This document shows positions 30,020 to 64,000 of a DNA stretch of 64,000 nt, piece by piece (the stretch's first letter is position 1; every line of letters begins with the position of its first letter). The stretch covers positions 32,001-96,000 of the forward strand of contig CAVYBH010000008.1 of the NCBI GenBank assembly GCA_963766715.1, in the 5' to 3' direction. The position numbers and the translations under genes were made by a program. The stretch is from an uncultured delta proteobacterium. GTDB taxonomy: Bacteria; Myxococcota; Myxococcia; Myxococcales; Anaeromyxobacteraceae. The notes under the pieces are model-generated. The model was given only the letters and a program-made list of their open reading frames with translations. It did no database searches and was not told where the DNA came from.

Positions 30020-30800
30020 ATGACCACCCCCACCACCGACGACGGCTGGATCCACGTCTGGCACGCCGACCCCGGACTGGCCGCGGACCCGGATGCCCGG
30101 CGCGCCTGCCTCGACCTGCTCGACGGCCCGGAGCGGGAGAGGATGGGGCGCTTCCGCTTCGAGGCCGACGCGACGGCCTACCTGGCCGCCCATGCGCTCC
30201 TTCGCTCGGCGCTTTCCCTCCTCGCCCCGGTGGAGCCGCGATGCTGGCAGTTCCGTCCAGGGGCGCATGGCAAGCCCTTCGTCGAGGAGCCCGGCGAGCA
30301 CCGCGGGCTCTCGTTCAGCCTCTCCCACACCCCGGGGCGGGTCGCCGTGGCCGTCGCGTCGAGAGGCCCGGTGGGGATCGACGTCGAGCACTCGGGCGTC
30401 GCCCGTTCACTCCTGGAGAATCCGGAACGGTTCCTCTCGCCGTCCGAGGCCAGAGCACTCCGGCGCCCTGCCCGTCGCCGACCAGCCGGACCGCTTCCTC
30501 GCCTGCTGGACGCTGAAGGAGTCCTACTTGAAGGCCTCGGGGCTGGGACTGTCCGTGCCGGTGCAGGCCTTGTCGTTCCACCTCGACCCGGGAGCCCGGA
30601 TCCGGGTCAGCTTCGAGCGCGCCATCCAGGACGACCCCGAGGCCTGGCGGTTCCTCCGGTTCGCGGCGACGAGCGAGCACCCGGCGGCCGTCGCCGCGCG
30701 GTGCGCGCCGGGAACTGAGCTGTCGGTGCGCATCCTGGAGGCTTCGCGCCTGCCCCTTGCTGGCTCGTCGCATCATCATGTGACGCCCAATGGGGTGTGA
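30020..30800 (+). CDS. Sfp-type 4'-phosphopantetheinyl transferase (frameshift near 30460)
   Basis: HGKP, FSLSHT, VGIDVE, WTLKESYLKASGLGL. Confidence 0.9.
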
Positions 30801-30824
30801 TCCCGTGCTCTGGTGAGAGGATCC

Positions 30825-32238
30825 ATGGCGTTCGATTCCCCAGCCGTCGATCCTGTCGCGCCCGGCCCTGTTCGACCCGGGCAGGAAGCGCGAGTGGAGT
30901 CACGGAGAGTTGCGTGCCGCCGCCGTGGGGCTGGCGAGCCGGATCGCGGGCGCCAGGAGCGGCCTGGCCTTCCTGCTCTCGCGAAACACGTTCGATGCGG
31001 TCGTCGCCTACCTGGCCTGCCTGGAGGCCGGCGTGGCGGTGGTCCTCCTCGACTCGCGGACCCGGCCGCCGGACCTCCAGAGGCTCCTCGAGATCTACCG
31101 GCCGGAGCTCGTGCTGGCGGTCGACGAGACGTCTCCGGGCGCCGGGTACCGGCTGGAGGGGCCCGTCGACGATCTCCGGCTCTGGTGGCGCGAGCCCGGC
31201 GAGGTGGCCGCCCCGGTACACCCGGACCTGTCGGTGCTGCTCTCCACGTCGGGGAGCACCGGCAGTCCCAAGCTCGTGCGCCTCACGCGACGCGCCGTCG
31301 AGGCCAACGCCGGGTCGATCGCGACCGCCCTCGGGCTCGACCCGGACGAGCGGGCGATGGCGAGCCTGCCGCTGTACTACTCGTACGGCCTCTCGGTGCT
31401 GAACAGCCACCTCCACGCGGGGGCGAGCGTCGTCCTCACCGACGAGACCGTCGTCTCGCCGCACTTCTGGAGACTGTTCCGGTCCCAGAACTGCACGTCG
31501 ATGCCCGGGGTCCCGTACACCTACGACCTGCTCCTGCGCATCGGCTTCGAGAGCCTGGAGCTGCCTTCGCTGCGCGCCCTCACCCAGGCGGGAGGGCGCC
31601 TCGCCCCGGATCTGGTCCGGCGCTTCCACGCCGAGATGGCGCGCCGGCGTGGCCGGTTCCACGTCATGTACGGGCAGACCGAGGCGACGGCCCGGATCGC
31701 CTGCCTGCCACCGGATCGCTTGCCCGGGAAGGCCGGCACCGTCGGCGTGGCGATCCCCGGGGGCCGGCTCTCGGTCGACGTCGGGGGCGGCCGCGAGGGA
31801 GCTCCCTCGGAGGTGGGCGAGATCGTCTACACCGGTCCGAACGTGATGATGGGGTACGCGGAGTGCCGGGCCGACCTCGCTCGTGGCGACGAGCTGGGGG
31901 GCGTGCTGCGGACCGGCGACCTCGGCTTCCTCGACGAGGACGGGTTCCTGCACCTCACCGGGCGCAGCAAGCGCATCGGGAAGGTGCTGGGGATGCGCGT
32001 GAGCCTCGACGAGGTGGAGGCCCGCCTGCGGGCCCGGGGGCCGACCGCGGTGGTCGCCGGCGACGACCGGCTGCTCGTGTTCTGCGAGTACGGAGATCCG
32101 GCGCTCTTCTCCGAACTGGCGAAGGAGCTTGCCCGCGACCTGCGGGCAACCGAGAATTCCTTCGTCTTCCGGCGGATACCGGCGCTTCCGCTCACCGCGA
32201 GCGGAAAGCCCGACTACCAGAAGCTCGTGCCGCCGTAG
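30825..32238 (+). CDS. Stand-alone AMP-forming acyl/aryl ligase (5' part frameshifted)
   Basis: LLSTSGSTGSPKLV, YGQTEATARIA, TGDLG, GRSKR, LPLTASGKPDY. Confidence 0.88.
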
Positions 32239-32281
32239 ACGCTCCGTCGATTCGAAGGGGGGGGAATGGTTTCAGGCCGCG

Positions 32282-35200
32282 ATGGATCGCCAGATGGCTG
32301 GACGGCGCTCGAGCTGCGCCTGGCCCGGATTCTGGGAAGAGGTCCTCGGGCGGGAATCCGTCGACCGGGAGGACGACTTCTTCTCGCTGAACGGCTCCTC
32401 GATCACGGTCATCGAGCTGCTGGCGCGCGTTCACGGCGAGACCGGCGTCGAGCTGGGATTCCAGGACGTCTTCCGGGCCCCGGTCCTCCACGAGCTCGCC
32501 GAGCTGATCGAGAAGGCCACGGGCGGAGACCGCTCCAGGCGCCACCTCCCGGATCGCGCGTTCGCCCCCGCGGGAGGAATACCCCCTCTCCTTCGCGCAG
32601 TCCCGCCTCTGGTTCCTGGAGGAGCTCTACCCGGGGATGCCCGCGTACCGGACCATCACGGGAATCTCCCTTCGCGGCGCGCTCCGCCTCCCCGAGCTGC
32701 GGACCGCGCTCGACCAGGTGGTGGCCCGCCACGCCATCCTGCGCACCACCTTCCACGCCCACGGCGGCGTCCCGGTCCAGGTGATCCAGCCAGCCTCGCC
32801 GGTCCCGCTTCCCGCGGTGGATTCTGCGCGGACACGCGTCCCCCGAGGACGAGGTCCGGCGCCTGGTGCGGGTGGACGTGCGGGCACCGATGGACCTGGA
32901 GGAGGGCCCGTTGTTCCGGGCCAGGCTCGTCCGGCTCGGAGAGGAGGAGCACCTCCTTCTCCTCACCATCCACCACATCGTCTTCGACGCCTGGTCCCGG
33001 AAGGTGCTCCTGCGGGATCTCGGCGCCTTCTACCGCCGGGCGTGCCGAGGACGCGACCGCCGTCGAGGCGGTCGAGCCGCTCCCGGTCGACTACGTCGAC
33101 TTCGCGGTGTGGGAGCGCTCGCCCGAGAACGACGCCCGGCTCGAGGTCGACCGCGCCTTCTGGAAGGAGCACCTCGGCCGGGATCCGATTCCGCTCGAGC
33201 TCGCGACCGACGAGGCGCGGCCGGCGGTCGAACGGTTCGAGGGGCTGCGCGAGACCCTGAGCCTTCCGCCGGAGGTCTGCGCCGGGCTGGAGCGCCTCGC
33301 CGCGGCGAAGGGAAGCTCCCTCGCCACGGTGGTCCTGGCGGGCCTCCAGGCCCTGCTCCATCGCCACACGGAGAGCGATTCGGTGGTGCTCGGCCTGGTG
33401 GTCGGAGGGCGGGACCAGGCGGGCACGGAGCCGCTCGTCGGCCTCTTCATGAACGAGCTCGCCCTGCGCACCGACGTGGCGCCCGACGAGACCTTCTCCA
33501 CCCTGCTCGCCCGGGCGACCCAGGCCACGCGGGACGCGCTCGCCCACCAGGGCCTCCCGCTCGACGAGCAGATCCGCATCGCACGCCCGGGTCGCCAGAT
33601 CGACCTGTCGCCCCTGTTCCGCGTCGCCTACAACTTCAAGCCCCGGCTGCAGGCCACCGTGGACTTCGGCGGCGGACTGGTGGGGGCGGACGTCGACCTC
33701 GATCCCGGCGTGGCGCTCATCGATCTGATCCTGAACGCGGTGCAGGTCGACGAGGGGCTGGCCGTTCACTTCGACTACGACCGCGACCTGTTCCGGCCCA
33801 CCACGGTGAAGCGCCTCGCCCTGCACCTCCGGGCCCTCCTCGAGGGCGCGATCGCCGACCCGGACCGGCCCGTGGCGCGCCTTCCCCTGATGAGCGCCCC
33901 GGAGCGGGAAACGGTGCTGCGAGGCGTCGCAGGGGCCGTGGCCGGCGGAGGCGGCGCCGGACGTGGTGGAGCGGATCCGGGAGCAGGCGGTTCGGCGCCC
34001 GGAGCACGTGGCGGTGGAGGCGCCGGACGGGAAGCTGACGTACGCCGAGCTCGAGGCGGCGAGCAACCGGCTGGCGCGGAAGCTCCGCTCGCTGGGCGTG
34101 GTCCGGGAATCGCGGGTGGGCGTGGCCGTTCCGCGCGGGGCGCGCGAGCTGTGCGCGCTGCTGGGGACGCTCAAGGCGGGCGGGGCCTACGTCCCGGTCG
34201 ACCCCGGTCACCCGGTGGAACGGGTGCGCGTGATCCTGGAGGACGCCGCCCCGGAGGTGCTGATCGCGCCGTCGGACTCGCCGCTGCGCGACGCCATGCC
34301 GCCGGGGACGCGCGCTCGCTCGCGCTCGACGACCTGGCGGCCGCCACCGCCGGCCTCGACGGCTCGCCGCTCGACGAAGCCTTCGACCCGGAGCAGCTGG
34401 CCTACATCCTCTTCACCTCCGGCTCGACCGGGCGCCCCAAGGGCGTGGAGGTGCTGCGCGGCGGCTTCGCCAACTTCCTGCGCTCCATGGCGAGGGAGCC
34501 GGGGCTCCGGGAAGACGACCGCTTCCTCGCCATCACCACCACCACCTTCGACATCTCCGGCCTCGAGCTCTTCGGGCCGCTCTGGGTCGGGGCGACGACC
34601 GCCATCGTCGACCGCCAGACCTCCATGGACCCCCGCCTCCTCGGGGACCTGCTCGCCACGGGAGGATTCACCGTCCTGCAGGCCACGCCGGCCACCTGGC
34701 GCATGCTCGTCGACGCCGGATGGAAGGGCACGCCGGGGCTGCGGATGTTCTGCGGCGGCGAGGCCCTGAGCCGCGACCTCGCCGACCGCCTCCTCGAGCG
34801 GGGCGGCGAGCTCTGGAACCTCTACGGCCCCACCGAGACCACCGTCTGGTCGACCCTCGACCGCATCCTCCCGGACGGCGCGCGCATCACCATCGGTCGC
34901 CCCGTCGACCGGACCCGGGTCTACGTCCTCGACCCGTCGCTCTCGCTCGTGCCGCCCGGCGTCGTCGGGGAGATCTTCATCGGCGGCGACGGCGTCGCCC
35001 GCGGCTACCGGGGGCGCCCCGACCTCACCGCCGAGAGGTTCCTCCCCGACCCCTTCGGCCCTCCGGGCTCCCGCTTCTACCGGACGGGCGACCTCGGCCG
35101 CCTCCTCGAGGACGGGCGCTTCGAATGCCTCGGCCGCACCGATCACCAGGTCAAGGTTCGCGGCTTCCGCATCGAGCTCGGCGAGATCGAGGCCGCCCTG

Positions 35201-38200
35201 CGGACCGTCCCGGGCGTTCGCGAGGTGGTCGTCGTCGCCGAGAGGCGAGCCGAGGGCGACCCTCGCCTCGTCGCCTACTGGACCGGCGACGTGGAGCGCC
35301 TCGCGCTCTACGAGCGGGCCCGCAGCGCGCTCGCGCCGTACATGGTTCCCTCCGCCTACGCCCGGCTCGACGCCTTCCCGCTCACCACCAGCGGCAAGAT
35401 CGACCGCAAGGCCCTGCCCAGCCCGGACGACGTCGCCTCCGACGACGTCCCCGCCCTCGTCCTGCGCCCGCGCGACGACACCGAGGCCCGCATCGCCTCC
35501 ATCTGGGCCGACGTCCTCGGCCTCGACGCCGTCGGCGTCGACCAGGACTTCTTCGCCCTCGGCGGCACCTCGCTCCTCGCCATCCAGGCCCGCTCCCGCA
35601 TCGAGCAGGAGTTCGGCCTCGAGGTTCCCCTCCGCGCCTTCTTCGAATCCCCCACCGTCTCCTCCATCGCCAGCGGGGCTCGGCTCCAGCGCCGCGCCGG
35701 CAGGACCGTCCGCGGCCGGCCCGAGCAGCGTCCGGGCGACCGACCCGGAGGCGCCGGGGGCCGACGCGCGGTCCCTCGCCCTCGGGCTGGCCCGGGCGCG
35801 CGCCGTTCCCCTCACGGCTCGACAGAGCCTGATGTGGCTGGACCAGCAGCTCTTCCCGCACGCCCGCTACCACAACCTGGTCCTCACCCTCTCGATCACC
35901 GGCGACCTCGACATCGAGCGGTTCCGGCGCGCCTGGGCGGATACCGTGGCCAGGCGGGACTTCCTCCGGATCGCCGTGAGCCCGCGCGGGGCCAGCCAGC
36001 GCCTGGTGGAGGTCTCTCCCCCGACCTCCCGCTCGTGGACCTGAATCCCGAACGGCTCCAGGCCTGGGTCGCCGAGCACGGCACCCGGTCCTTCACCTCC
36101 GACGGGGTGCGCTGGGAAGCGGCGCTCCTCCGCCTCGACCGGGAGCACCACGTCTTCTTCCTCGCCACCGACCACATCCTGGTCGACGCGCTCTCGCTCC
36201 GGGTCGCCGTCGCCGACCTGGACCTCCTCTACCAGGGAAAGGCGCCTCCACCGCCTCGCTCGTTCGCCGAGTACCTCGACTTCGAGGCGCACTACAGGGC
36301 GTCGGCCGGCGCGGAGCTGGACCGTGCCTACTGGGAACGCAAGGTGGCCCTCGGGGCACCGCCCCTTCGCCCGTATGGCCTTCGGCGCACCGATCCCTCG
36401 GTGGCCGCCGAGGTCCGCTGGACCGACGCGGATCCGGTGCGAGGGGGGCGCCTGCTCGAGCTGACGCGGTCCGAGGCGTTCCGTTCCGTGAATGGACCGC
36501 TGTCCAGGATGGTGGTGTTCGCCACGGCCCTGGCGGCCTTCCTCCACCGCATCACCGGCAATCGCGAGGTGGTGCTGGGAGCCCCCGTCGCCAACCGGAA
36601 CCCGCGCTTCGCATCGACCAGCGGGCTCCTCATGGAGCAGGTCTTCCTGCGGATCCTCGTCGAGGAGGAGGACACCTTCGAGACGCTGGCTCGCAGGGTT
36701 CACTCGGAGCTGCTGGAGTCCCTCCGCCACGGGCAGGCCTGCGTGAGCGACCGCGGGATGGAGTACGTGACGCTGAACCTCCTGCCCCCACTCCCGACCT
36801 CGTTCGGCGAGCTCGCGGTGGAGATGCACGCTCGACGCCGCCGCGTCGCTCGGCGGGCCCCAGGCAGGCACCGGCGATCTCCGCGATACCTTGCGACTCC
36901 AGATCGTGGACTCGGCATCGAGCGACCTGATCCAGGTCGGCTTCGTCTTCCACAAGGCGACGTTTCCCCGCGAGGTCCAGGAGCGCGTCCTCGACCATTT
37001 CCACCGGATCCTGGACACGATGTCGGCGGATCCCGCCACGTCGATCGAGTCGGTGGGGCTTCAGGACGAGGTCGAACGCGACGGCGGTGCTCCAGGCGTC
37101 GCAGGGGCCGTGGCCGGCGGAGGCGGCGCCGGACGTGGTGGAGCGGATCCGGGAGCAGGCGGGTCGGCGGCCGGAGCACGTGGCGGTGGAGGCGCCGGAC
37201 GGGAAGCTGACGTACGCCGAGCTCGAGGCGGCGAGCAACCGGCTGGCGCGGAAGCTCCGCTCGCTGGGCGTGGTCCGGGAGTCGCGGGTGGGCGTGGCCG
37301 TTCCGCGCGGGGCGCGCGAGCTGTGCGCGCTGCTGGGGACGCTCAAGGCGGGCGGGGCCTACGTCCCGGTCGACCCCGGTCACCCGGTGGAACGGGTCCG
37401 CGTGATCCTGGAGGACGCCGCCCCGGAGGTGCTGATCGCGCCGTCGGACTCGCCGCTGCGCGACGCCATGCCGCCGGGGACGCGGCTGCTCGCGCTCGAC
37501 GACCTGGCGGCCGCCACCGCCGGCCTCGACGGCGCGCCGCTGGACGAAGCCTTCGACCCGGAGCAGCTGGCCTACATCCTCTTCACCTCCGGCTCGACCG
37601 GGCGCCCCAAGGGCGTGGAGGTGCTGCGCGGCGGCTTCGCCAACTTCCTGCGCTCCATGGCGCGGGAGCCCGGGCTCCGGGAGGACGACCGCTTCCTCGC
37701 CATCACCACCACCACCTTCGACATCTCCGGCCTCGAGCTCTTCGGGCCGCTCTGGGTCGGGGCGACGACCGCCATCGTCGACCGCCAGACCTCCATGGAC
37801 CCCCGCCTCCTCGGGGACCTGCTCGCCACGGGAGGATTCACCGTCCTGCAGGCCACGCCGGCCACCTGGCGCATGCTCGTCGACGCCGGATGGAAGGGCA
37901 CGCCGGGGCTGCGGATGTTCTGCGGCGGCGAGGCCCTGAGCCGCGACCTCGCCGACCGCCTCCTCGAGCGGGGCGCCGAGCTCTGGAACCTCTACGGCCC
38001 CACCGAGACCACCGTCTGGTCGACCCTCGACCGCATCCTCCCGGACGGCGCGCGCATCACCATCGGTCGCCCCGTCGACCGGACCCGGGTCTACGTGCTC
38101 GACCCGTCGCTCTCGCTCGTGCCGCCCGGCGTCGTCGGGGAGATCTTCATCGGCGGCGACGGCGTCGCCCGCGGCTACCGGGGACGTCCCGACCTCACCG

Positions 38201-39655
38201 CCGAGAGGTTCCTCCCCGACCCCTTCGGCCCTCCGGGCTCCCGCTTCTACCGGACGGGCGACCTCGGCCGCCTCCTCGAGGACGGGCGCTTCGAATGCCT
38301 CGGCCGCACCAATCACCAGGTCAAGGTTCGCGGCTTCCGCATCGAGCTCGGCGAGATCGAGGCCGCCCTGCGCGGCCGTCCCGGGCGTTCGCGAGGTGGT
38401 CGTCGTCGCCGAGAGGCGAGCCGAGGGCGACCCTCGCCTCGTCGCCTACTGGACGGGCGACGTGGAGCGCCTCGCGCTCTACGAGCGGGCCCGCAGCGTG
38501 CTCGCGCCGTACATGGTTCCCTCGGCCTACGCCCGGCTCGACGCCTTCCCGCTCACCACCAGCGGCAAGATCGACCGCAAGGCCCTGCCCAGCCCCGACG
38601 ACGTCGCCTCCGACGACGTCCCCGCCCTCGTCCTGCGTCCGCGCGACGACACCGAGGCCCGCATCGCCTCCATCTGGGCCGACGTCCTCGGCATCGACGC
38701 CGTCGGCGTCGACCAGGACTTCTTCGCCCTCGGCGGCACCTCCCTCCTCGCCATCCAGGCTCGCTCCCGCATCGAGCAGGAGTTCGGCCTCGAGATTCCC
38801 CTCCGCGCCTTCTTCGAATCCCCCACCGTCTCCTCCATCGCCAGGGGGCTCTCGGCGCCGCGGTCGACCCCGACGAGCCCATCGTCGCCTGGTTGTCCCG
38901 CAAGCCGGCTGGCGTGCCCCCGGTCTTCTGCCTGCTCGGGATCCAGCTCTACCAGGACGTCGCCGAGGCCCTCGGCGGCAGCCAGCCGGTGGTGGGCATC
39001 CACGTCCCGGTCCGGTACCGCCCCGGCGACAGCGCCTCCATCCAGATCGAGGCCATCGCCGCGCGATACGTCTCGCTGATCCGTTCCATCCAGCCGAGCG
39101 GCCCGTATCACCTGGCGGGCTTCTGCTTCGGGGGGGTGGTGGCCTACGAGGTGGCGCGACAGCTGGAGCGCGCGGGCCTGGAGGTCGCCCAGGTGGCAAT
39201 CTTCGACGGGGGGCTGCCCGGCGCCTTCCGGACGCAGCGCCTGGCCCAGATCCGCGAGGCTGGCTCCTACCTGATCCGGCCGTCCAGGGCCCTTGCGTGG
39301 TTCCGTCGCCGTCGACGCAGCCGCGCCGCGTCGGTCCGGCCATCGGCGAGCCCGGCGAGAGGGCCTCGTCGATCTCGACGTCACCAGCCCTGAGCTGCGA
39401 GTGACGGGGCGCAGGTACGAGCGCACGCTGGGCCGGATCCGCGCGCACGTGCTGGTGTTTCGCGCCCTCTACCGGGAACTGGGAGTCGGCGTGCAGGTCG
39501 ACCCCGATCTCGGGTGGTCCCGCTTCGCGGAGCGGGTGTCGGTCTGCATCGTCCCGGCCGTCCACATGGACCTGGTCCAGGCTCCGCAGGCCGAGACAGT
39601 GGCCGCAAGATGGACCGAGGAGCTCCAGATACGGGGCGCCCTGCCTCGAGCCTGA
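32282..39655 (+). CDS. Non-ribosomal peptide synthetase T-C-A-T-C-A-T-TE (multiple frameshifts)
   Basis: T0 DFFSLNGSS; C1 SFAQSRLWFL, HHIVFDAWS; A LAYILFTSGSTGRPKGV, TFDISGLEL, NLYGPTETTVWS, GKIDRKAL; T DFFALGGTSL twice; C2 DHILVD; TE GPYHLAGFCFGG...VHMDL. Confidence 0.9.
33913..38844 (+). repeat. Near-identical ~1.76 kb direct repeat of the A-T didomain (33913-35674 and 37086-38844)
   Basis: Long identical runs by eye, with only scattered substitutions. Confidence 0.92.
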
Positions 39656-39897
39656 CCCACCCAGCCTGCCGCTCGACCGAACGAACGGGCAGTCGCCCGC
39701 CCAGTCTCGGCCCCTACCCGGAAGGGAACGTCAGGATCCAGGGGGCCGTCCTGTCCTTCTCAAGGCAACGCCGCGCCGGCTCTCCATCCCGTGTCCCGGG
39801 ACTCCACGACATCCGAAGACAGGATGTGTGCGAGTGGGGCAAAGGTGGGAAAAGGTAACTGGGAGTTTATCTGGCGGGAACAAGGCGAGGGGTGGGA

Positions 39898-44240: not shown

Positions 44241-44413
44241 TCCGGCTCGCGGGCCGTGCGTTGGGGGGGCGCCCGTTGGAGGCATCTCGACGGGGACGCG
44301 CTCGATTCGATGCCGATGGCCAGGGCCCCGTTAAGAGAATGCGGCGCCATGCCACCGATCCGCGCAGTCCGTGCAGCGCGTGAACGGCGAAGGCGACACC
44401 CGCGCAGAAAGGG

Positions 44414-47680: not shown

Positions 47681-47682
47681 GG

Positions 47683-52219: not shown

Positions 52220-52338
52220 GTCCAGCGTGCCAATGTCCCAGACGACGTCCGGGACCGTCAAGCAACGTCCACCGCGACGCGGCGGTGGTCTCACCGCGGG
52301 ACGTCCGGGGGCGACCGGGGCAGCCCCCGGGCGTTCGT

Positions 52339-54460
52339 TCAGTTCCCGCCGGCGAGGTCGATGATCGCCTGCCACATCGGAGTCGGCGACCCGGTTCCGG
52401 TGAGCGGCCACGGGTACCCGTCGGAGGCCGCGTAGGAGCGCGAGAGCTCGTTGGTCGGGTAGATGCCGCGAACGGTGCCGCTCTGCACGATGACGTCAGG
52501 TGAGGCAGCGTGTACGCGTGCCCGATCAGGTTGTAGTAGATGGTCTTCATCTGCGGGTCGGACCACGCGGCGGCGACGGAGCCCGCCCGGAAGATCTCGA
52601 TGCCCGACTCGTAGGACGAGAACTTGATGCCGTAGCGTGCCGCCATGTCCTCGCCGTCCTGCTGGCGCTCGTAGATGGAGCTCTCGTAGGGCTGGCCCGA
52701 CCCGGTGCAGGAGAGCTGCTCCTTCAGGTCGTGGAGGAAGCCGGAGCCGTCGGCTCGAACGCCCAGCGTCCCGACGCTTCCCACCGACGTCGCGGTGGGG
52801 GCGCCGTTTCCATCCATCGGGGCGTGCAGGTAGAAGCTCCCGGACACGTTGTGGATGTAGTAGCTGACCGGCTGCTTCGGGTTGGTGAACCCGTCGATGG
52901 TGTCGTACGTCGAGTTCGGCCCCCACACGGCCGTCATGTAGTTCATCGCCGTCTGGTGGCGCCCCCACCCGCCCCAGTCTCCCTGGTTCGCGTAGACGAT
53001 CCGGATGGTGTCCTGCATCGCCGCGTCGCCCCAGACCTTGCGAGCGAGCAGGCTGATGCGGACGACGTTCCACGCGCCCCACTTGTCGCCCGGGGTTGAC
53101 GTGTTGCCGTCGTAGGCCAGGTGGTGCTCGTCACCGCCGCGATGTCAGCCGCTCCCTGCGGGTCACCGTAGGAGTAGTAGCTGAACAGCTCGTTGGTGAA
53201 CTCCACGTAGACCTTCCGGCCGGGCAGCAGGCCCGGGTACCAGCCCACGCCCTGCTGCCAGGTTGCCGGGTCGTGCGTCTGAACCGTGTAGGGATCGCGT
53301 CCGTTGCTGCCGTACTTGAGCAACTGGAACACCTTGGTGACGTAGTCGTTGTCCGCGCCGATCGGGATGTTCACCCAGACGTCCATCCCGGTCGTGTTGG
53401 CGAAGATCACCGTGTCCTCCCACGGCGTGCCGAAGTCCTGGTAGCCAGGGACTCCGGGGTACTGCCGGGTGCTCCACGACGTCTCCGTGGACCCCATGAT
53501 TCCGGTCGCGCCGTGCGTGCAGGCCAGGGGTGCCACCGAGCGCCCACGCGAAGCGCATGAGGGAGAACACGCGGTTCAGGGCCACCACTTCCTTGCGCCA
53601 GTAGTCGGTCGGACACGAGTGGCCCGGGTACATCAGCCGGGGGTTGGTGAAGCCCCGGGTGTTCCCGGTGGCGTCCGCGGTGTGCGCGGCGTTCCGCCAG
53701 GAATTGGTGATCTCGACGTAGTAGTTCTTGCCGCTGGAGGGGATGTTCACGTCCGCGGTGGTCGCGTTGGTCGAAGCGTCGTAGACGAGATTCGTGACCG
53801 AGCCCGTGTCCCGACGGAGACGCTGGCCTGGCCGTTGAAGAAAGCTTGTAGGTCCCGGCGACGACGGCCGAGGGCCCCGCTCCGGAGCCCTCGATGTAAG
53901 AGGCGCGGCAGTCGACGGTCGGGTTGCCGTTCACGTCGTACTGGCTCGCGCCGATCGTGTTGAGGGTCCCGGCGGCAGCCAGCCTGGCGTCCCTGCTTGA
54001 ACGGATCGGCGTAGATCGCGGGCCGTCCAGCCGGAGATCTCCGGGACGTGACCGCCGACGCGCCCACGGGCGTCGTCGTCGGGCGCGGGGGCGTAGACGC
54101 AGTCGACACCGTGATCGTGGCGGTCGCCGAGACGGAGCTGTCTGCGGCGGAGGTCGCGACGACGTGGAACGTCCGTACGTGCCCGGCGCGAGTAGGAGGC
54201 CGCTGGCATCGACGGTTCCGCCTCCCGACTTCCGTCACGACCAGACGACGCTCCGGACGGGGTGCCGGTCACCGCGGCCGCCAGGGAAATGACCCTCCCG
54301 GGGTCACCGTTGCGGCCGGGGGACGACGGCAACGTCGACGCCGGTGGCCGCCGACCGTTGGGGGCTCCGCGGAACGTCGGCGGAGTTCCCCCGCAAGCCG
54401 ACAAGGAGGATCGCGGCGCCAAAGATGCCAAGGAGGGCGTGAACGGGCGCTGTTGAACAT
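52339..54460 (-). CDS. Paralogous glycoside hydrolase-like protein with N-terminal lipoprotein/Ig module (heavily frameshifted)
   Basis: LSAC lipobox-like, TFHVVATSAADSSVSATATITV Ig strand; PWEDTVIFANTTGMDVWVNIP, KVYVEFTNELF, SSYESG. Confidence 0.62.
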
Positions 54461-54786: not shown

Positions 54787-56259
54787 CTACTTTTTCGGCG
54801 GAGGACGGCCGGGGCTCGACTCGGTCACGGGCTGCGCGGCGTCACGCGGCGGTCGCCGAGGTACCAGAGCGCGACCACGCCCCAGAACAGCGGCACGACG
54901 GCGGCTGCGGCCAGCGAAGGGGAGGATGCTGCGGCTCGGCGTGGACGACAGAGCTTTGGCGGCCGCGAAGCCGGCGAGGATGCCACGCCGCGAGAGGCCG
55001 TGAAGCGAGGCGTCGAAGCGGGTGGCTCGCAGCCCGTGGGCCGAGACGCCGATCATCGAGACCGTGTACTTCGCCAGGTCGGAGCAGCGACGAGCCCGAT
55101 GAGCGCGCCGCGGAATCCGCCCAGGTGGAAGCCCAGCGTCACGAACGCCACGAGGGTCGCGACCTTGACCGCGCTGATGGCCGCCTTCCAGTGGGTGTGC
55201 CCCATGGCGAGGAGCGCGGCGCCGTTCGTCGACTCCAGGATCTGGAACCAGGCGGCCACCGACAGGAACTGGAGGATCCAGCCCGCCTCCCAGTAGCGGC
55301 TGTCGTAGAGGATGCGGACCAGGGAGGGCCCGCAGGCGATCATCCCGCTCACGATCGCACCACCGCCGAGCAGGAGCGGCAGGCGCACCACCGCGAACGT
55401 CTTCGAGAAGTCGTCCCGCCCCGCGATCCGGCTGTAGGTGGGGAAGAGGACCCGGCTCCCGATCGCCTCCATCGCCTGCGTGGGCATGACTCCCAGCGTG
55501 GCGCCGATGTTGTAGACGCCGAGCGTCTGCGATGGGCAGGAGCTTGCCGAAGAGGAGCCGGTCGGACTGGTCCGACAGGAAGTGCAGGATGGTGCTGAAG
55601 GCGATCCATCGTCCGAAGCGGTACTGGATCCGGAGCCAGTGCCGGTCGAAGACGAAGCGGTGACGGATGTGCTCGACGATAGGTGTGGGTGAGCACCAGC
55701 CTGACGAAGTTCCCGGCCAGGTTTCCGCCCACGACCGCCCAGACCACGCGGGGGTCGTTCGCCGCGTGCGTCGATCGGTAGGCGAGCGCCAGGACGATGA
55801 TGGCGACGATGTTCACCACCTGGCTCACGAGGTCGACGATGACGACCGGCTTCATCTTCATGTGGCGGCACGCTGCGTGTGCATCGAGGTGGCCTCGAAG
55901 CCGTTCATCACGGCGTTCAGCCCGGCCACCGGGAGGAGCTGCGCGAGCAGCGGCTGGCCGTAGAAGGACGCCACGGGCCCGGCGATGGCACAGGAGACGA
56001 GCCAGATCGAGCCGCCGCGCACGATCTGGATCGACCAGCAGGTGTTGAGGAAGCCCGGGTCGTCGCCGTGCTGGCTCTGGATGATGGCGGCCCCGGTCCC
56101 GGTGTCCGAGAACATGAAGAGGCCCAGGATGAAGATGGACACCAGGGCGGCGAGGCCGAAGACCTCCGGGAAGAGGAGCCGCGTGAGGATCAGGTTGCCG
56201 ACGAAGCGCAGCAGCTGGGCGCCGCCGTAGCCGCCGAGCGTCCAGATCGAGGCCCGCAT
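54787..56259 (-). CDS. wzx: Wzx oligosaccharide flippase (frameshifted)
   Basis: LRFVGNLILTRLLFPEVFGLAAL...FSDTGTGAAIIQ, QSDRLLFGK, LGVYNIGA, LYDSRYWEAG. Confidence 0.85.
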
Positions 56260-56265
56260 GGCGCC

Positions 56266-57533
56266 TCATGCCGGCCGCCGGAGGCCGGTGGGCGGTCCCG
56301 TCCCGCTCCGGCCGCCTGGGTGATCACCGAACCCTCTCTCGCGAGGCGTCCGGACCCATTCCTGTTTGGAGCGGCGGCGCGGGCGCAGCAGGAGCCCGAC
56401 CTTCCAGACCAGGTAGAACGGGCGCTCCCAGCAGGCCGAGCAGGCCGGGCCAGCCCGGTGCCGGAGAGCCACCAGCCGCGCAGCGACGTAGAGCGCGAGC
56501 GCCGCCAGGCTGGCTCCCCAGGGCCAGACCGGCCAGAGCAGCGCGTCCGGCCAGACGCGGAAGCCAGGCCAGCCAGGAGCGTGCCCGCCGCGGCGGCGGC
56601 CGCGAGGTAGGCGAGCGGCGGGACGAGGAGGTCGAGCCCGAGATCCACCAGCACCCGGTCTCCAGTACGGAGCCCGCGCCGCAGGACGGGCAGGCCGTAG
56701 CGGCGCGCCATCTGGCAGCGCCCGCCCTCCCACCGGCGTCGCTGGACGTCGGCCGCGGCCCCGCCGACCGGCCATGTCCCCGAGGACCGAGGCCTCGGCC
56801 GCGAAGTGGACGCGATGGCCGGCGAGCCCGAGCCGGATGCCGTACTCCAGGTCCTCGACGATGGAGAAGGCCTGGTGCGGGACCTCCCGCAGCACCGCGG
56901 CCGAGAAGCACATCCCGTTGCCGCGCAGGCCGGCCGAGCAGCCCAGGCGCTCGCGCCCGAGCGAGCGCAGCATGTGGAAGAGCGCCAGCGCGACCGCCAT
57001 GAGCCGCGTGCGCCAGGAGGCGCCGGGGTTGCGCACGCCGTAGAACGCCTGCACGGCGGGCGCCCCGGCCTCCAGCCGCGCCGAGAAGGCGCGCGAGCAG
57101 GTTCGGGCGACACCTCGCTGTCGGCGTCCACGACCACCACGGCGTCGGCGAAGCCCTCGGCCAGGCTCTCCGCGAAGGCGTACTCCAGGGCGTAGCCCTT
57201 CCCGCGCCGCTCGGCGTCCGTCCGGACCAGCACCTCGGCGCCGGCCGCGCGCGCCCGCTCGGCGGTGCGCGTCGGTGCAGTTGTCGGCCACCACCACCAC
57301 GCGTCGAAGCGCTCCGGGTAGTCGAGGGCGAGCAGGCTCGCGACGGTGGCCGGCGATGCCCGCCTCCTCGTCGTGGGCCGGGACCACGACGTCGAAGCGC
57401 AGGCGCGGGAGCGCACGGCGGGCGGCGCGCGCCGGCGCCGGAGAGAAGCGTGAGCACGAGCAGGTAGCCGGACGCCAGCCAGCACCGGCAGCGCAAGGAG
57501 CCCGAGCAACGCCTCGGCGACGTCCGCAATCAA
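56266..57533 (-). CDS. GT2 glycosyltransferase with membrane helices (frameshifted)
   Basis: VVPAHDEE, VADNCTD, GKGYAL, VVDADS, GNGMCF, IVEDLEY, QRRRW. Confidence 0.85.
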
Positions 57534-57803
57534 GGCAGGGCTCGGGGGCGGAATGGGACGTGCGAGTCGGTTGGTCGGTCCAGGCGTTCAATGCGGGCGT
57601 CGAGCTCGCACGGGAGCGGTCTCCGAGTACCACGGGGCTGCATCGGGTGCATGATACCGAGGTCGAGGGTAGCGGCCGTCGCAACTACGGCGCGGGCGGT
57701 TGTCTTTCGGCCCGGGTCTGTTAATGATTCGCCAGGCTTTCCGCCATTCCCGCCGACGAGCGTCACGTCAGGGACATTGCGACGAGGCGCCGACGAGGGG
57801 CGC

Positions 57804-59211
57804 GTGAGCGCACTGATCCACATCGCGATCGCTTCCTGGTTGGTGCTGGTCTTCGCGCTCTTCTGGCTGCGACCGCCCGCGCAAGCCGCGGTGGCGTCCT
57901 TCGTGGTGGGATGGATGTACCTGCCCATCGCCGGGTACCCGATCACCGGGCTCCACTCCAAGGCGGAGATCGTCGCCACCGGCGTGCTGGTCGCGAGCCT
58001 GATCTTTGCGCCCCGCGCGTGGCTCCGGTTCCGTCCGGCCTCGATCGACCTCCCGATGGCGGTGGCCTCCCTGGCGCCCTTCTTCGCGGCGATCGCCAAC
58101 GACGAGGGCCCCTACAACGGCAGGCTCCGTCCTCTTCTCCGGCCTGCTCCGATGGGGTTCGCCCTACCTCGTCGGCCGCGTGTTCCTCTCCGACCTCACG
58201 GGGCTCCGGACGATCGCCCTCGGGGTCTTCCTGGGTGGACTCAGCTACGTCCCGCTCTGCCTGTACGAGATCCGGATGAGCCCCCAGCTGCACCGGATCC
58301 TCTACGGATTCCACCAGCACGAGTTCGTGCAGACCCTGCGCTGGGGTGGCTTCCGGCCCATGGTGTTCATGAACCACGGCCTCGCCCTCGGGCTGTGGAT
58401 GACCCTGGCCTGCCTCTCCGGATACTGGCTGTGGCGGACCGGAACGAAGAAGCGCCTCTGGGGTGTCCCGATGTCCTCGCTCTCGTGGTCCTGTTCCTGA
58501 CCACGCTGCTCGTGAAGTCCCTGGGGTCCCTCGTCCTCCTCGCCGCGGGGATGGCAGCGCTGACGCTGGCGCGATCGCTGCGGACGTCGTGGCCGGTCCT
58601 CGCGCTGGTCCTCGTCGCGCCTGCCTACATGACCGCGAGGGCGACCGGGTACTGGTCCGGGACAGGAGCTGATGCAGTTCGCCGGACGGCTGGACGCCGA
58701 GCGGGCGCAATCCGTGCAGACCCGCCTCGAGAACGAGGACGAGCTCGTCCGGAAGGCCATGGAGCGGAAGGTATTCGGCTGGGGCGGATTCGGTCGGGCC
58801 GAGATTCGCGACGAGGAGGGGGTCAGTCCACTCCGTCCGCGACGGCATGTGGGTGATCTTGCTGGGTGAGGTCGGGGCTGGTCGGGCTGATCAGCCTGAC
58901 CGCCGCGTTCCTGCTTCCCGTCGTGTACCTGGTCCGTCGCTACGGGACGCGGCTCTGGCGCGACCCGGACCTGGCGACGGCCGTGGTGCTCGCCATGTTC
59001 TTCATCCTCTTCCTCATCGATTCCCTCTTCAACTTCTTCGCCAGCCCGGTTTACTCGGCCAGCGCCGGAGCACTGGCTGGATTCGCGCTGCGCGCACCCC
59101 CTGAAGGTCCGCCGCCGGGTCCGGCGCGCCGCCCGATCCGGCTGGGCGGTGCCCCGGATCAACCCGCAGCCCGTGCTCGGGCCGAAGACCGAGAGCGGCG
59201 GCGGAACGTGA
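57804..59211 (+). CDS. O-antigen ligase/Wzy polymerase-like membrane protein (frameshifted; end approximate)
   Basis: Multiple TM segments; YEIRMSPQLH, RWGGFRPMVFMNHGL, RAQSVQTRLENE, FGWGGFGR. Confidence 0.7.
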
Positions 59212-59301
59212 ATCCAGCCGGCCCGGCGCCCGTTCCGCTCGCGTCACCTGAATCCGGTGATCCCGCCGGACCGCCCTTCCGCTATTATCCGGCTCGCCCC
59301 C

Positions 59302-59858
59302 ATGTTCGAGACGCTGCGGCGCGACGGCGCGAGGTACTCCCAGCTGGGAGGGTGGGCGTCCAGCCCCGGCTTCTGGGTGGGCGCCATCTACCGCTTTGGG
59401 GTCTGGGCCCACTCCCTGCCCTCGGTCTTCCTCCGCATCCCGGTCATCACGCTGTACCGGATCGTCAAGCTGCCCTGGCGCATCCTGCTGAACGTCTACA
59501 TCCCGCCCTCGGTGCGGATCGGCCCGGGGCTGTGCCTCATCCATCCCAACAACATCCTCATCGCCCCGAACGTGGTCATCGGCGAGGACTGCCTCATCTT
59601 CCACGAGGTGACGCTGGGGACGGGCCCGACTCCCGGGGGTCCCGACGATCGGGAACAGGGTCGACATCTACGTCGGGGCCCGCGTCCTGGGCGGCGTGGT
59701 CATCGGCGACGCCTCGATGATCGGCGCCAACTGCGTGGTCACGCGGAACGTGCCCGCCCGGATCGGTGGTGGTCGCTGCCCCGGCGCGGGTCGTCCCCCG
59801 TTCGCTCGCCCCGGTGGCCCGCGCGGCCGACGAGCGGGCCCGCTCGAACCAGGAGTGA
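59302..59858 (+). CDS. Left-handed beta-helix O-acetyltransferase (CysE/WcaB-like; frameshifted)
   Basis: IGPGLCLIH, IGEDCLIFHEVTLG, IGANCVVTRNVP hexapeptide repeats. Confidence 0.8.
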
Positions 59859-59897
59859 ACGCGCCGCGGGTCTCCCGGGACGCTGCGGCTCGACCGC

Positions 59898-61476
59898 TCA
59901 GGACGCCGGGGGCCGGGCGGCGAGCTGCGCCCGGAGGAGCTTGCCCGACTCGTTCCGGGGCAGGGATTCCACCGGGGTGAAGCGGACCGGGACCTTGTAG
60001 GCGGGCAGCGCCTCCCGGCAGAAGCGCCGGAGCTCGCGCCTCGTCGACGGCGCATCCGTCCCGGGGGACGACGAAGGCGGCCGCCACCTCGCCCATCAGG
60101 GCGTCGGGGACCCCCACCACCGCTGCGTCGGCCAGGTCCGGGTGCCGGGCCAGGACGTGCTCGATCTCCACCGGGCTCACCCGGTGTCCGCCGATCTTGA
60201 GGATCTCCTTCGACCGCCCCTGGAGGAAGAAGAATCCGTCGCGATCGCGGTGGGCGAGATCACCGGTCCAGAGCCACCCGTCGTGGAGGATGGCGGCGGT
60301 CTCCTCCGCCTCGTCGAGGTAGCCCGGCGTCACGTTGGCGCCGCGCGCCACCAGGTGTCCCGTCTCCCCGGCCGGAAGCGCCCTGCCCGTCTCGTCGGCC
60401 ACCTGCAGCTCGACGCCGGGGATGGGGACGCCGATGGAGCCGGCCTTCTCCGCGGAGCGGGACGGCGGCAGGTAGGACAGGCGCGCGGTGGCCTCGGTCT
60501 GGCCGTACATCACGAAGAGGTGGGCCGGCTGGAAGGCCTGGCGCACCCAGGCGATGGTGTCCGGGGACATCGCGCCCCCGGCCTGGGTGAGATACCGGAG
60601 GCGAGGGAAGGACAGCGACGCGACGTCGACCTGGCGCCGGATGATCTCGAAGGTGAGCGGGACCCCGGCGAACCCCGTGCAGCCCTCCGACCCGAGGTTC
60701 TCGAGCACCACCCGGGGGAAGGCGAAGCGGGAGTCCAGGAAGACCGAGCCGCCCGCGAGCAGGTGGGTCTGGAGCACGCTCCGGCCGTAGCAGTAGTAGA
60801 GGGGGAGGACGACCAGCGCCCGGTCGTCCGGGCCGAGCCCCAGGTACTCGACGATGGAGCGGGAGTTGGCGTCGACGTTGCGAAAGGTCTGGATCACGCC
60901 GCGGGGGCGCCCGGTGCTCCCCGAGGTGTAGAGGATGAGGGCCGGCGAGGCGGGATCCAGCGACGGGAACCTCGGCGGCGCGGCCGCCGGGAGCGCGGGA
61001 TCGACCCGGCCGTCGTCGAGCACCCAGGACACCTGCGTCCCGGAGAGCTCCGCCCGGAGCGGCTCGGGGAGCGCGGCCGGGTGCACCACCCAGAGCCGAT
61101 CGAGCGGGCTCCGCTCGATCACCCTCCCCCAGATCCGGGCGTCGCGTCCCCAGACCACCGCCGTCCGGACGCCGGTCCTCGCCACGATGTCGCCCAGGAT
61201 CTCCGCGCCCCACTCCCGGTTCACCTCGACGGCGGTGCCACCGAGGGCCTGCACGGCGAGGGCCGCCACGACGGTCGCAGGGACGTTGGGCAGCGCCAGC
61301 AGGACCCGATCGCCCGGCCGCAGGCCGCCGGCGGCCAGATGGGCGGCGAGGGCGCGCACGCGCCCGGCCAGCTCCCCGTAGGAGAGACGCGTCGTGGGCG
61401 TCGCCACCGCCGGCGCCTGCGGGCGCCGCTCGGCGTGCTCGAACAGCCAGTCGTGGAGGAACGGGGAGTTCACCAT
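59898..61476 (-). CDS. Class I adenylate-forming enzyme (acyl-AMP/CoA ligase; frameshift near 60035)
   Basis: ILYTSGSTGRPRGV, YGQTEATARLSYLPP, WTGDLA, GRSKEILK, LPRNESGK. Confidence 0.88.
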
Positions 61477-61498
61477 GGGTCCGTGCACGCGGGGGAGC

Positions 61499-62341
61499 CT
61501 AGGGCGACGACGGCGCAGGGCCGGAAGGGACGCGGGCGAGGACGCCGACGAGCTCCCGCGCCGCCCGGAGCCGGCCCGCCTGGTTCAGGTGGCCCCCGTC
61601 CTCGCTGTAGGCCTCGGCGAGCACCGGGATGGACCTTCCGCTCCACTCGACGACCGTGCGCGCGCCGTCGGGACCGGTCGACTCGACCGCCGCCAGGTCG
61701 AACAGGGGTTCGCGCCCCTGGTACGCCTGGCGCATGAGGGCGTTGAACTCCTCGCGCCGCGCGTTCTCCGCCACGCCCCCGGGCGCCTTCCCGAGGAGGC
61801 GCTTCACGAGGGCCTTCGGCCCCCCCTGCGTGGTGGTGAGGGGAACCGTCACGTGGACGAACGTGGTGCCCGGATGGCGTCGCGCCAGGTCGGCCACCGT
61901 GGACTGGTAGCGGGCGAACAGCCGGGGCGCGTCGGTGTCGGATCGGAAGTCGACGTAGCAGAACTTCACGAGCGCGACGTCCACGGCCGAGGCCGGCCCG
62001 GAACCGAGGACCCGGGCGAAGCTCTCGAGCTTCTTCTCCGGGTTGCCGTTCTCCTCCACGGGTCCGTGCCCGAAGGAGCCGGCGGGGACGGCGAGCGGGC
62101 CTGCCTCGACCTCGACCCACCGGATCGGCACACCCGCCTGGGCCGAGAGCTGCTTCAGGCCGTCGACCAGGTTCCAGCCCACCGACTGGTGACCGAAGTA
62201 GATCCGGTGGCGCCCCATCGACTCCAGGTCGGCGCGCAGCTTCGGGTCGCCGGCGTCGGCGCGCGCGCCGCCCGCCGCGGTGACCGCGAGTCCGGCCACG
62301 AGCCCGAGCATCGCCCCGCCGATGAGTTCCGTCCCCACCAT
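61499..62341 (-). CDS. Exported SGNH-like hydrolase/acyltransferase
   Basis: Signal peptide; FGHQSVGWNL, DVALVKFCYVDF, NARREEFN, DGGHLN. Confidence 0.65.
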   Translation of the reverse strand: MVGTELIGGAMLGLVAGLAVTAAGGARADAGDPKLRADLESMGRHRIYFGHQSVGWNLVDGLKQLSAQAGVPIRWVEVEAGPLAVPAGSFGHGPVEENGNPEKKLESFARVLGSGPASAVDVALVKFCYVDFRSDTDAPRLFARYQSTVADLARRHPGTTFVHVTVPLTTTQGGPKALVKRLLGKAPGGVAENARREEFNALMRQAYQGREPLFDLAAVESTGPDGARTVVEWSGRSIPVLAEAYSEDGGHLNQAGRLRAARELVGVLARVPSGPAPSSP

Positions 62342-62384
62342 CCCGAACCCTCCTGTGGTGCCGCGACCCAGCCTACCTATATAA

Positions 62385-63383
62385 ATGGACATTCGTGCCG
62401 GAGCCCCATTGACCCGCCTCGCCGTCGTCATCGTCAACTACCGCACGGCGGACCTGGCTTGCCAGTCCCTCGCCAGCCTGGCGCCCGAGCTGGCGAGCCG
62501 GCCCGGGAGCGTCGTGCGCGTCGTGGACAACGACTCCGGCGACGGCTCCCTGGAGCGGATGGCCCGCTTCGTCGAGGAGCGGGGCTTCGGGGCCTGGGCC
62601 CAGGTCGTTCCGGCCGGCCGGAACGGCGGCTTCTCGGCGGGGAACAACGTGGCCCTGCGCGCGCTCCTCGCCGAGGGGCGGCACGACGCCTTCCTGCTGC
62701 TCAACCCCGACGCCTGGGTGCTTCCGGGGGCCATCGACGCGCTCGTCGCCCGGATGGAGAGCGATCCGGGGATCGGCATCGTCGGAAGCCGGCTGGAGAA
62801 CCCGGACGGCTCGCTCCAGAGGGCCGCGTTCCGGTTCCCGTCGCCGGGCAGCGAGCTGGAGCGGGCCATCTCTCTCGGCCCGATCACGCGCCTGATGGGC
62901 AACTGGGCGATCTCCTTTCCTCCGGCGGACGAGCCGCACCGCTGCGACTGGGTGGCGGGCGCGAGCCTCCTCGTGCGACGGGAGGTCCTCGAGAAGGTGG
63001 GCCTGCTCGACGAGGGGTACTTCCTCTACTTCGAGGAGGTGGATCTCTGCCTGCGCGCCGCCCGCGCCGGCTTCTCCTGCTGGCACGAGCCCCGCAGCCG
63101 GGTGGTCCACCTCGAGGGGCAGGCGACGGGGGTGACCGATCCCCGCAACGCCCGGCGCCGGCTGCCCACCTACTGGTTCGACTCCCGCCGGCGGTTCTTC
63201 CTCAAGAACTTCGGCCGCGCGCGGACCGCGGCGGCGGACGCGTCCTGGCTGGCGGGGTGCGTGGTCGGCGCTCCGGGCCGCGCGCTCCGGAAGGCCGTGC
63301 GGGGAAAGGTCGAGGAGACGCCGAGGCGGATGCTCGTCGACTTCACCCGGCACAGCGTCTTCGTCCGGGGCTTCGGCTGGTGA
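62385..63383 (+). CDS. GT2 glycosyltransferase (WbbL-like)
   Basis: VVIVNYRT, VDNDSGD, NGGFSAGNN, LLLNPD, WVAGASLL, DEGYFLYFEEVDLC. Confidence 0.9.
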   Translation: MDIRAGAPLTRLAVVIVNYRTADLACQSLASLAPELASRPGSVVRVVDNDSGDGSLERMARFVEERGFGAWAQVVPAGRNGGFSAGNNVALRALLAEGRHDAFLLLNPDAWVLPGAIDALVARMESDPGIGIVGSRLENPDGSLQRAAFRFPSPGSELERAISLGPITRLMGNWAISFPPADEPHRCDWVAGASLLVRREVLEKVGLLDEGYFLYFEEVDLCLRAARAGFSCWHEPRSRVVHLEGQATGVTDPRNARRRLPTYWFDSRRRFFLKNFGRARTAAADASWLAGCVVGAPGRALRKAVRGKVEETPRRMLVDFTRHSVFVRGFGW

Positions 63384-64000
63384 GCGCATCCGGGCAGAAG
63401 CGCCGGGTGGGCGTCGTGGCCATCGGACGCAACGAGGGAGATCGGCTCCGGCGCTGCCTGGAGTCGGTGGTCCCGCTGGCCGACCGGGTGGTCTACGTCG
63501 ATTCCGCCTCGTCCGACGGAAGCCCCGCGCTCGCCCGATCGCTGGGCGCGACCGTGGTCGACCTGGACATGTCGAAGCCCTTCACCGCCGCGCGCGCGCG
63601 CAACGAGGGGTTCGAGCGGTTGCTCGAGCTCGAGCCCGGCCTCGAGCTCGTCCAGTTCGTGGACGGGGACTGCGAGGTCGTGGCGGGGTGGATGGCCGTC
63701 GCCGTGTCCGCCCTCGACGCGGACCCGGGCGTGGCCGTGGTGTGCGGCCGCCGGCGGGAACGACACCCGGAGAGGAGCATCTACAACCGGCTCTGCGACT
63801 TCGAGTGGGACACGCCCGTGGGCGAGACGCTCTCCTGCGGAGGGGACGCGATGATGCGCGTGCCGCCCTTCGTGGAGGTGGGCGGGTACGACGCCGGCCT
63901 CATCGCCGGGGAGGAGCCCGACCTCTGCCTCCGGCTGCGCCAGCGCGGCCATCGGATCCTCCGGGTCGGGGCGGAGATGACCGTCCACGATGCGGCCATG
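63380..64000 (+). CDS. GT2 glycosyltransferase (runs off window end)
   Basis: GTGA overlap; manual translation VGVVAIGRNEGDRL...YVDSASSDGS...FTAARARNEG...QFVDGDC...GEEPDLC. Confidence 0.85.
   Translation, partial: MSASGQKRRVGVVAIGRNEGDRLRRCLESVVPLADRVVYVDSASSDGSPALARSLGATVVDLDMSKPFTAARARNEGFERLLELEPGLELVQFVDGDCEVVAGWMAVAVSALDADPGVAVVCGRRRERHPERSIYNRLCDFEWDTPVGETLSCGGDAMMRVPPFVEVGGYDAGLIAGEEPDLCLRLRQRGHRILRVGAEMTVHDAAM

Follow-up and report, generated by a model that had tools for sequence, protein, structure and literature searches.

The cassette and its reading frames

Within the 64,000 nt analyzed here (the window; contig 8, CAVYBH010000008.1, positions 32001-96000, of an uncultured delta proteobacterium of the Anaeromyxobacteraceae), three genes lie in tandem on the + strand at the edge of an exopolysaccharide (EPS) locus, with housekeeping genes upstream. 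They encode a phosphopantetheinyl transferase (PPTase), a stand-alone adenylating enzyme (the starter ligase), and a nonribosomal peptide synthetase (NRPS), and they are treated here as one cassette. The host assembly (G000) comprises 4.2 Mb at 72% GC and is 85% complete; assemblies seem to be the only record of the host genus. Gene order was obtained by frameshift-aware reading and family scans of 42 pieces. An earlier note on this DNA had described the same tandem, with the NRPS read as T-C-A-T-C-A-T-TE, and every part was found where it had been placed.

The PPTase (30020-30800) was assigned to the Sfp/HetI type by family scans and has a single frame break near 30452. The starter ligase (30825-32238; PF00501) is approximately 470 aa long, with a probable early break near 30860. 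The NRPS (32266-39655), with approximately 14 frame breaks, reads T0-C1-A1-T1-C2-A2-T2-TE (T, carrier; C, condensation; A, adenylation; TE, thioesterase). T0 (32330-32520; PF00550, E 4e-10) is an N-terminal PCP-like carrier with a phosphopantetheine (Ppant) serine and was found in all orthologues. C1 (32575-33920; HHIVFDA) was 58-61% identical to the single-module orthologues. A1-T1 (33924-35675) carries the code DILQFGLVWK, and A2-T2 (37096-38845) is a near-identical copy of it, with 23 differing codons in 577. C2 (35800-37075; DHILVDA), which separates the two copies, is a divergent condensation domain, yet it keeps the catalytic His; it was 45% identical to the N-terminal C domain of a C-A-T-TE NRPS in the relative G089 and at most about 31% identical (25-31%) to the other C domains compared. 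The TE (38851-39655) has a Cys nucleophile (GFCFGG) and a C-terminal His, assigned by family scan and motifs. With its C-A-T modules, intact core motifs, Ppant serines, and terminal TE, the gene has the features of a linear type A NRPS. We take both A-domain codes, read by the Stachelhaus scheme, to specify glycine, and the X-Gly-Gly product that the earlier note had proposed is consistent with these predicted specificities. No exporter or tailoring gene was seen beside the cassette in the gene reading of the window or in the surroundings of the locus, which agrees with the earlier reading.

Break density was 1.2 per kb in the cassette, 0.8 per kb upstream, and 2.5 per kb in the EPS genes. At least seven of the NRPS break sites (32330, 32822, 33049, 34313-17, 36830, 37082, and 38849) were indels absent from the short-read contigs of relatives, which were compared at roughly 90-97% identity. 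Because these close relatives lack the indels and the EPS genes are equally or more broken, the frame breaks are most likely assembly errors. The A-T duplication is genuine and not a mis-assembly: 16 of the differing codons were synonymous and 7 were nonsynonymous, a pattern that fits a true duplication and not a collapsed assembly. The C2-A2 junction was spanned by a contig of run X1 and the T-C2 junction by a contig of run X5, the two runs belonging to separate studies. An assembly artefact or a pseudogene was thus ruled out by the independent contigs, the codon pattern, and the break density.

Distribution and genomic context

Among 92 genomes of the family, the cassette was present in 5 of the 14 from the host genus (G000, G001, G004, G006, and G008) and in none of the other 78; it was likewise not found outside the genus in a 401-genome sample of the phylum, in which four candidates were scored per genome. 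The starter ligase was matched at E ≤ 1e-75 in 6 of the 92 genomes, namely the five carriers and G027, which has no C domain and whose ligase, read by eye, lies between ACP/SDR genes (ACP, acyl carrier protein) and genes resembling LuxE/LuxC. In the phylum sample, the ligase was matched in 7 of 401 genomes; the two matches outside the family adjoin LuxE. A metagenome scan returned seven loci, of which two were orthologues (63%), apparently of one lineage, and five were generic NRPSs. The ligases of the NRPS carriers formed one clade (SH-aLRT 99; 22 rows, 16 of them without known context) in a quick tree with midpoint root.

The NRPS follows the ligase in the four other carriers of the genus, in G006 on a separate contig end, and the PPTase accompanies the cassette in G001, G004, G006, G008, and the metagenome lineage L062, where a polysaccharide deacetylase adjoins it. 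Every C-domain match in the five carriers belongs to the cassette. The earlier note had tied the NRPS to the EPS genes and had named homologs occurring mostly without such genes as the finding that would speak against the link; we observed polysaccharide-locus genes beside the cassette in all five carriers, in at least four different arrangements. The G001 cassette has GT4 and AT3 genes upstream and GT2, Wzx, Wzy-like, and chain-length genes downstream. In G006, GT2 and Wzx genes lie downstream, and in G008, WecG, an AsnB module, a deacetylase, and GT4 genes lie upstream; in G004, ACP and AsnB genes abut the cassette at a contig end. Because the cassette has a single origin, as judged from the one ligase clade, these co-locations are read as a single gain that has persisted across at least four arrangements and not as five independent events.

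C domains were present in 21 of the 92 family genomes. Among the 16 noncarriers with a C domain, 12 were inspected: the NRPS lay beside Wzx/WecG/Wza-type genes in five, beside only an EpsC-like gene in two, and beside none of these in five.

Several loci of relatives combine other assembly-line genes with polysaccharide genes or Wzx. In G012 (L052:11566-19935), a relative of the genus without the NRPS, the EPS locus contains a proline-type ligase, a carrier, an acyl-CoA dehydrogenase, two ketosynthases, an ACP, a ketoreductase, and a radical-SAM-like gene, and reads like a pyrrole-primed type II polyketide synthase (PKS) module. G089 (L157:9827-19989) has a PKS-like module of the G012 type together with a C-A(Gly-like)-T-TE(Cys) NRPS. 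Mini-cassettes in G084 (L156:6008-14182) and G022 (L150:7127-15303) combine Wzx with a PPTase and a FAAL-like-T-C-A-T-TE NRPS, and further EPS genes are missing from their vicinity.

Family and predicted substrate of the starter ligase

The window ligase was nested among LuxE/LuxC-linked ligases in the quick tree and was 41-56% identical to them. In the at least 80 GTDB loci that held its best relatives, LuxE was found in 77, LuxC in 76, SDR in 78, and a PseB/C/F gene of the pseudaminic-acid (Pse) pathway in 65 of the 80 matches listed, whereas a C domain was found in one; 39 of these 80 loci were from Nonomuraea. The starter ligase is therefore placed, by this context, as a recruit from a glycan-acylation family.

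VinN was the only PDB sequence matching the ligase at E ≤ 1e-30. In VinN, D230 binds the amine and S299 and R331 bind the second carboxylate (PMC7756342, PMC11253843). In the window ligase, D230 is replaced by Ser and R331 is kept, this Arg being invariant in 60 of 60 homologues. Both stand-alone ligases of the window (the second is described below) have Ser or Cys at the position of the amino-binding Asp, and glycine codes were found in the embedded A domains of the NRPS. The AlphaFold model of the starter ligase had a pLDDT of 93.5, and its top fold matches included o-succinylbenzoate-, oxalate-, and malonate-CoA ligases (TM 0.6-0.7). The VinN-type Arg, the missing amine-binding Asp, and the LuxE/LuxC/Pse context of the family together suggest that the starter is a C4 dicarboxylate, succinate or malate. 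An N-4-hydroxybutyryl group occurs on Pse in some glycans (PMC9912281), and we infer that this group would be expected from succinate after LuxE/LuxC/SDR reduction.

LuxC was found in none of the five carriers, LuxE was represented there by one weak, distant match in G000, and no LuxE, LuxC, SDR, or discrete ACP lies within the cassette. Because LuxC was found in none of them, the acid on T0 would stay unreduced (succinyl or malyl), and a starter reduced to a hydroxy-acyl group was considered unlikely. An alpha-amino acid or cysteine as starter, as in the Cys-Gly of the Leptothrix glycan described below, was rejected since the amino-binding Asp is absent.

Module variation between orthologues

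One Gly-type module was found in G004 and G006 as well as in five orthologues from databases or metagenomes. A single module with another code (DAEDLGLVNK or DAEDVGTVQK), presumably for a basic residue, was found in G001, P0131, and P0136. G008 combines Gly with another residue through an unrelated second C domain (25% identity to C2 of the window). G006 and module 1 of G008 were read by eye. Of 12 orthologues, 10 have Cys as the TE nucleophile and the other two have Ser. Because C2 is nearest to the G089 domain and the A-T copies are near-identical, the window gene is best read as a G004-type line that has acquired a borrowed C domain and a duplicated A-T.

The origin of C2 bears on how many glycines are added. 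If C2 were still a starter domain (fed by an ACP, for example that of the second ligase) or were inactive, the product attached to the glycan would be acyl-Gly and not acyl-Gly-Gly. The 45% identity of C2 to an N-terminal C domain, against 25-31% to the others compared, is compatible with this, as is the single-module form of most orthologues. We nevertheless regard it as improbable. With a single TE in the protein, module 1 can be off-loaded only through C2, which retains the catalytic second His; the two-module form was also seen in contigs from two other studies, and G008 arrived at two modules independently.

Proposed assembly and transfer

On balance, we lean toward one joint reading of these data: the cassette would be an optional plug-in of the EPS locus that builds a dicarboxylate-capped Gly-Gly, which the Cys TE would hand to a cytoplasmic sugar precursor. 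By family knowledge, the PPTase would prime T0, T1, and T2. The starter ligase, judged from its pocket and family context, would adenylate succinate or malate and load it on T0, and A1 and A2 would load glycine according to their codes. C1 and then the divergent C2 would form acyl-Gly and acyl-Gly-Gly. In the weakest step of the scheme, a nucleotide sugar or an undecaprenyl-linked repeat unit would accept the acyl-dipeptide from the TE at an amine or hydroxyl group, and this transfer would precede Wzx flipping and polymerization. One candidate for the acceptor is a deacetylated amino sugar. FrsA-type and Pks13-type TEs are reportedly precedents for transfer.

Module swaps or additions in relatives would give strain-variable side chains. 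It is a tentative proposal, less probable than the joint reading itself, that the modular NRPS writes strain-specific side chains (acid-Gly, acid-Gly-Gly, acid-basic residue, or acid-Gly-basic residue) onto EPS by a serotype-like swapping of modules. With a dicarboxylate cap and a bond made by the TE, Gly-Gly could even form covalent cross-links or anchors from one chain to another.

Several observations weigh against capped Gly-Gly transfer by an EPS plug-in. EPS loci are hot spots for passenger genes, and the single origin reduces the five co-locations to one gain retained through shuffling. In most relatives the EPS locus lacks the cassette: G009 is one such case, and the second ligase, which marks EPS loci of this type, was carried by 30 of 78 genomes outside the genus, none of which carries the cassette. 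The usual late core motifs are missing from C2, which goes back to a starter-type C domain; its relative in G089 adjoins only an EpsC-like gene and no full EPS locus. A polysaccharide deacetylase, which could uncover an amine as acceptor, was found in the EPS locus of only three of the five carriers. The fold matches of the ligase, all at TM 0.6-0.7, do not fix its substrate. The Cys TE is also found in AB3403 of Acinetobacter baumannii and is replaced by a Ser TE in 2 of 12 orthologues; it is not diagnostic of transfer, being present in the beta-lactone-forming ObiF as well (PMC6668435).

The main rival, which we hold to be unlikely, is that the product is a free small acyl-glycylglycine, AB3403-like and with a role in biofilm or with metals, and that the cassette lies near EPS genes because it is co-regulated with them or because a variable stretch of DNA has picked it up as a passenger. 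AB3403 is the nearest PDB sequence to the TE of the G004 orthologue, and this nearest solved TE belongs to a C-A(Gly)-T-TE module that has a free ligase and carrier and a Cys nucleophile; AB3403 itself is described as uncharacterized, with no defined product (PMC10510592, PMC6668435). The single origin of the cassette and its position at the edge of the locus in the window are also compatible with a free product. The missing exporter and tailoring genes, the descent of the starter ligase from a glycan-acylation family, and the retention of the cassette in the locus through at least four rearrangements argue against it.

A quite improbable variant is that the peptide is attached to a single repeat unit, which Wzx then exports as a small, unpolymerized glycopeptide, as in carenaemin, which requires an NRPS-PKS and a Wzy-dependent locus and for which attachment to a repeat unit was proposed by its authors (PMC8313283). 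Wzx-NRPS-PPTase mini-cassettes without a full EPS locus do occur in G084 and G022. Here, however, what appears to be a full polymerization set (Wzx, Wzy-like, and chain-length proteins) lies in the locus, and no separate Wzx belongs to the cassette.

Comparison with known systems

In Vibrio cholerae, the O-antigen tetronate is made from malate using the 471-aa WbeL (PMC3441752, PMC10746206). Within these O1 tetronate genes (VC0248-VC0252), WbeL resembles the window ligase (approximately 470 aa) as a stand-alone enzyme that supplies a dicarboxylate-derived acyl group for a surface glycan, the likeness being one of length and role only. The ACP-SDR-ligase-LuxE-LuxC cassette of pseudaminic-acid clusters uses the same ligase family as the window. 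In contrast to WbeKL and LuxE-LuxC cassettes, the one described here has no LuxC, SDR, or discrete ACP, and the acid would be loaded onto T0 of the NRPS and then extended with amino acids.

AB3403 (PDB 4ZXH/4ZXI) shares with the window a free-standing ligase, a carrier, and a C-A(Gly)-T-TE order with Cys (PMC10510592), whereas the window has a fused carrier T0, two modules, a predicted dicarboxylate-type starter, and an EPS-locus context. The carenaemin loci of Collimonas arenae Cal35 are similar in that a Wzy-dependent sugar locus is required for an NRPS product whose attachment to the repeat unit has been proposed, but carenaemin is a diffusible antifungal made by a hybrid PKS-NRPS from two distant loci, and its mechanism is a proposed one (PMC8313283). 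In Flavobacterium psychrophilum, wfpC-G form a carrier-based line in a polysaccharide locus with a predicted strain-variable N-acyl group; they encode fatty-acid-synthase-type enzymes and a PglD-like transferase and not an NRPS (PMC6519341). The sheath glycan of Leptothrix cholodnii bears N-acetyl-cysteinylglycine and 3-hydroxypropionyl groups (bioRxiv 10.1101/157073). As an acyl-capped dipeptide ending in glycine on an extracellular polysaccharide, it resembles the predicted product by product alone, with different residues; because of this acyl-Cys-Gly side chain, acyl-dipeptide glycans are a real product class.

Thiotemplated glycan acylation and acyl-glycine NRPSs are thus already known kinds, and peptide and acyl-peptide substituents are already known on bacterial glycans. 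In the open-access literature we found no characterized condensation-domain NRPS that installs a peptide or acyl-peptide substituent on a glycan, and no fusion of both kinds in which a dicarboxylate-type ligase has been recruited and modules can be swapped. The small size of the cassette, the intact single-module orthologues (G004, G006, and G001), and a testable starter prediction make it a tractable case for the pattern of NRPSs in polysaccharide loci. If capped Gly-Gly transfer is true, genome mining would read such clusters as glycan tailoring rather than as orphan antibiotics, and a ligase family that counts thousands of members would gain a substrate class.

Second ligase, SGNH proteins, and an improbable Dlt-type relay

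The second AMP ligase (TIGR03098-like; 59916-61488, - strand) belongs to a separate ligase-NadE-AsnB-ACP module. It was found in 35 of 92 family genomes (4 of the 5 carriers, 1 of the 9 other genomes of the genus, and 30 of the 78 outside it), hence mostly in genomes without the NRPS cassette. In the quick tree it formed a sister family to the starter ligase, and it is accompanied by its own ACP, AsnB, and NadE-like genes, located in G000 immediately past the end of the window. It was therefore rejected as a partner of the NRPS. The product of its module is possibly an amidated dicarboxylate. The module was recorded at 59916-61488 of the window and at L046:488-3802; NadE-like, AsnB, and ACP genes also lie beside a ligase of the starter family in Ignavibacterium (L133).

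The window encodes two SGNH-like proteins. The first is a lipoprotein with Ig-like domains and an SGNH-like domain (44414-45750, + strand), and the second has an N-terminal signal or membrane helix (61499-62373, - strand). Both have signal-like N-termini, both assignments fall under the Pfam cut-off (E 1.7e-4 and 1.2e-3), and a search of the Atlas linked the SGNH protein to no named family. The SGNH family was present in 25 of 92 family genomes, including 3 of the 5 carriers and 22 genomes without the cassette, so that neither copy is a dedicated partner of the NRPS.

DltABCD and AlmEFG decorate an envelope polymer with Ala, Gly, or Gly-Gly through adenylation and carrier chemistry; unlike the window cassette, they have no condensation or TE domains. 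Systems of this type activate the amino acid with a separate adenylating enzyme that has the amino-binding Asp and charges a discrete carrier, and use an MBOAT acyltransferase (DltB) and an SGNH transferase (DltD), whereas neither stand-alone ligase of the window has this Asp. The earlier note had listed the second adenylating enzyme and the SGNH proteins in the locus and had drawn an analogy to Dlt and AlmEFG; in a relay of that kind the peptide would cross the membrane and an SGNH protein would transfer it to the polymer outside. Neither component tracks the NRPS. The locus does encode two SGNH-like proteins that carry Ser and His motifs, and in G001 an AT3 acyltransferase stands beside the cassette. 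However, MBOAT was found in none of the five carriers (74-96% complete) as against 3 of 14 in the control, the AT3 acyltransferase of G000 is confined to another contig, and SGNH is missing from two of the five carriers. With no MBOAT found, AT3 located elsewhere, and SGNH and the second ligase untied to the NRPS, the Dlt-type relay is not supported and is regarded as very improbable.

The adjoining exopolysaccharide locus

The distance from the NRPS to the nearest glycosyltransferase (GT) gene is 6.2 kb. It is occupied by the SGNH-containing lipoprotein gene and by a gene for another lipoprotein (39898-44334, + strand; no family match), in which a dozen or so Thr/Ala/Val-rich Ig-like repeats of approximately 100 aa stand in tandem between two copies of one unnamed domain. 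A PssD/PssE-like GT28 pair follows (45812-46819, + strand). On the - strand lie a Gfo/Idh/MocA oxidoreductase with a partner without known family (46819-48713), an EpsV-like chain-length (PCP/Wzz) protein (48853-50222), two paralogous proteins without Pfam match or known family, possibly glycan-acting (50386-54270), the Wzx flippase (54958-56269), an EpsU-like GT2 (56266-57530), and a Wzy-like membrane protein (57786-59042). The + strand carries a CysE/EpsC-like acetyltransferase (59257-60000) and two GT2 glycosyltransferases (62385-64000), the second running off the window.

Wzx, the EpsV-like protein, and the GTs all matched families in scans. The Wzy-like protein had no Pfam or NCBIfam match and was assigned from its membrane character and position. 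The EPS genes that the earlier note had listed are thus present as named, apart from the family support for the Wzy-like protein, which is missing, and that for the two SGNH proteins, which stays below the cut-off. No priming transferase was found in the window or in the next 20 kb, whereas the loci of relatives do carry one.

For a relative of the paralogous pair at 50386-54270, the nearest Atlas clusters were unnamed, with approximately half of their members viral. Elsewhere in the window, two paralogous proteins of approximately 470 aa (2338-3749 and 17227-18648) lie 15 kb apart on opposite strands, and two small divergent proteins consisting of short Lys/Ala/Asp/Thr repeats are encoded at 13912-15444.

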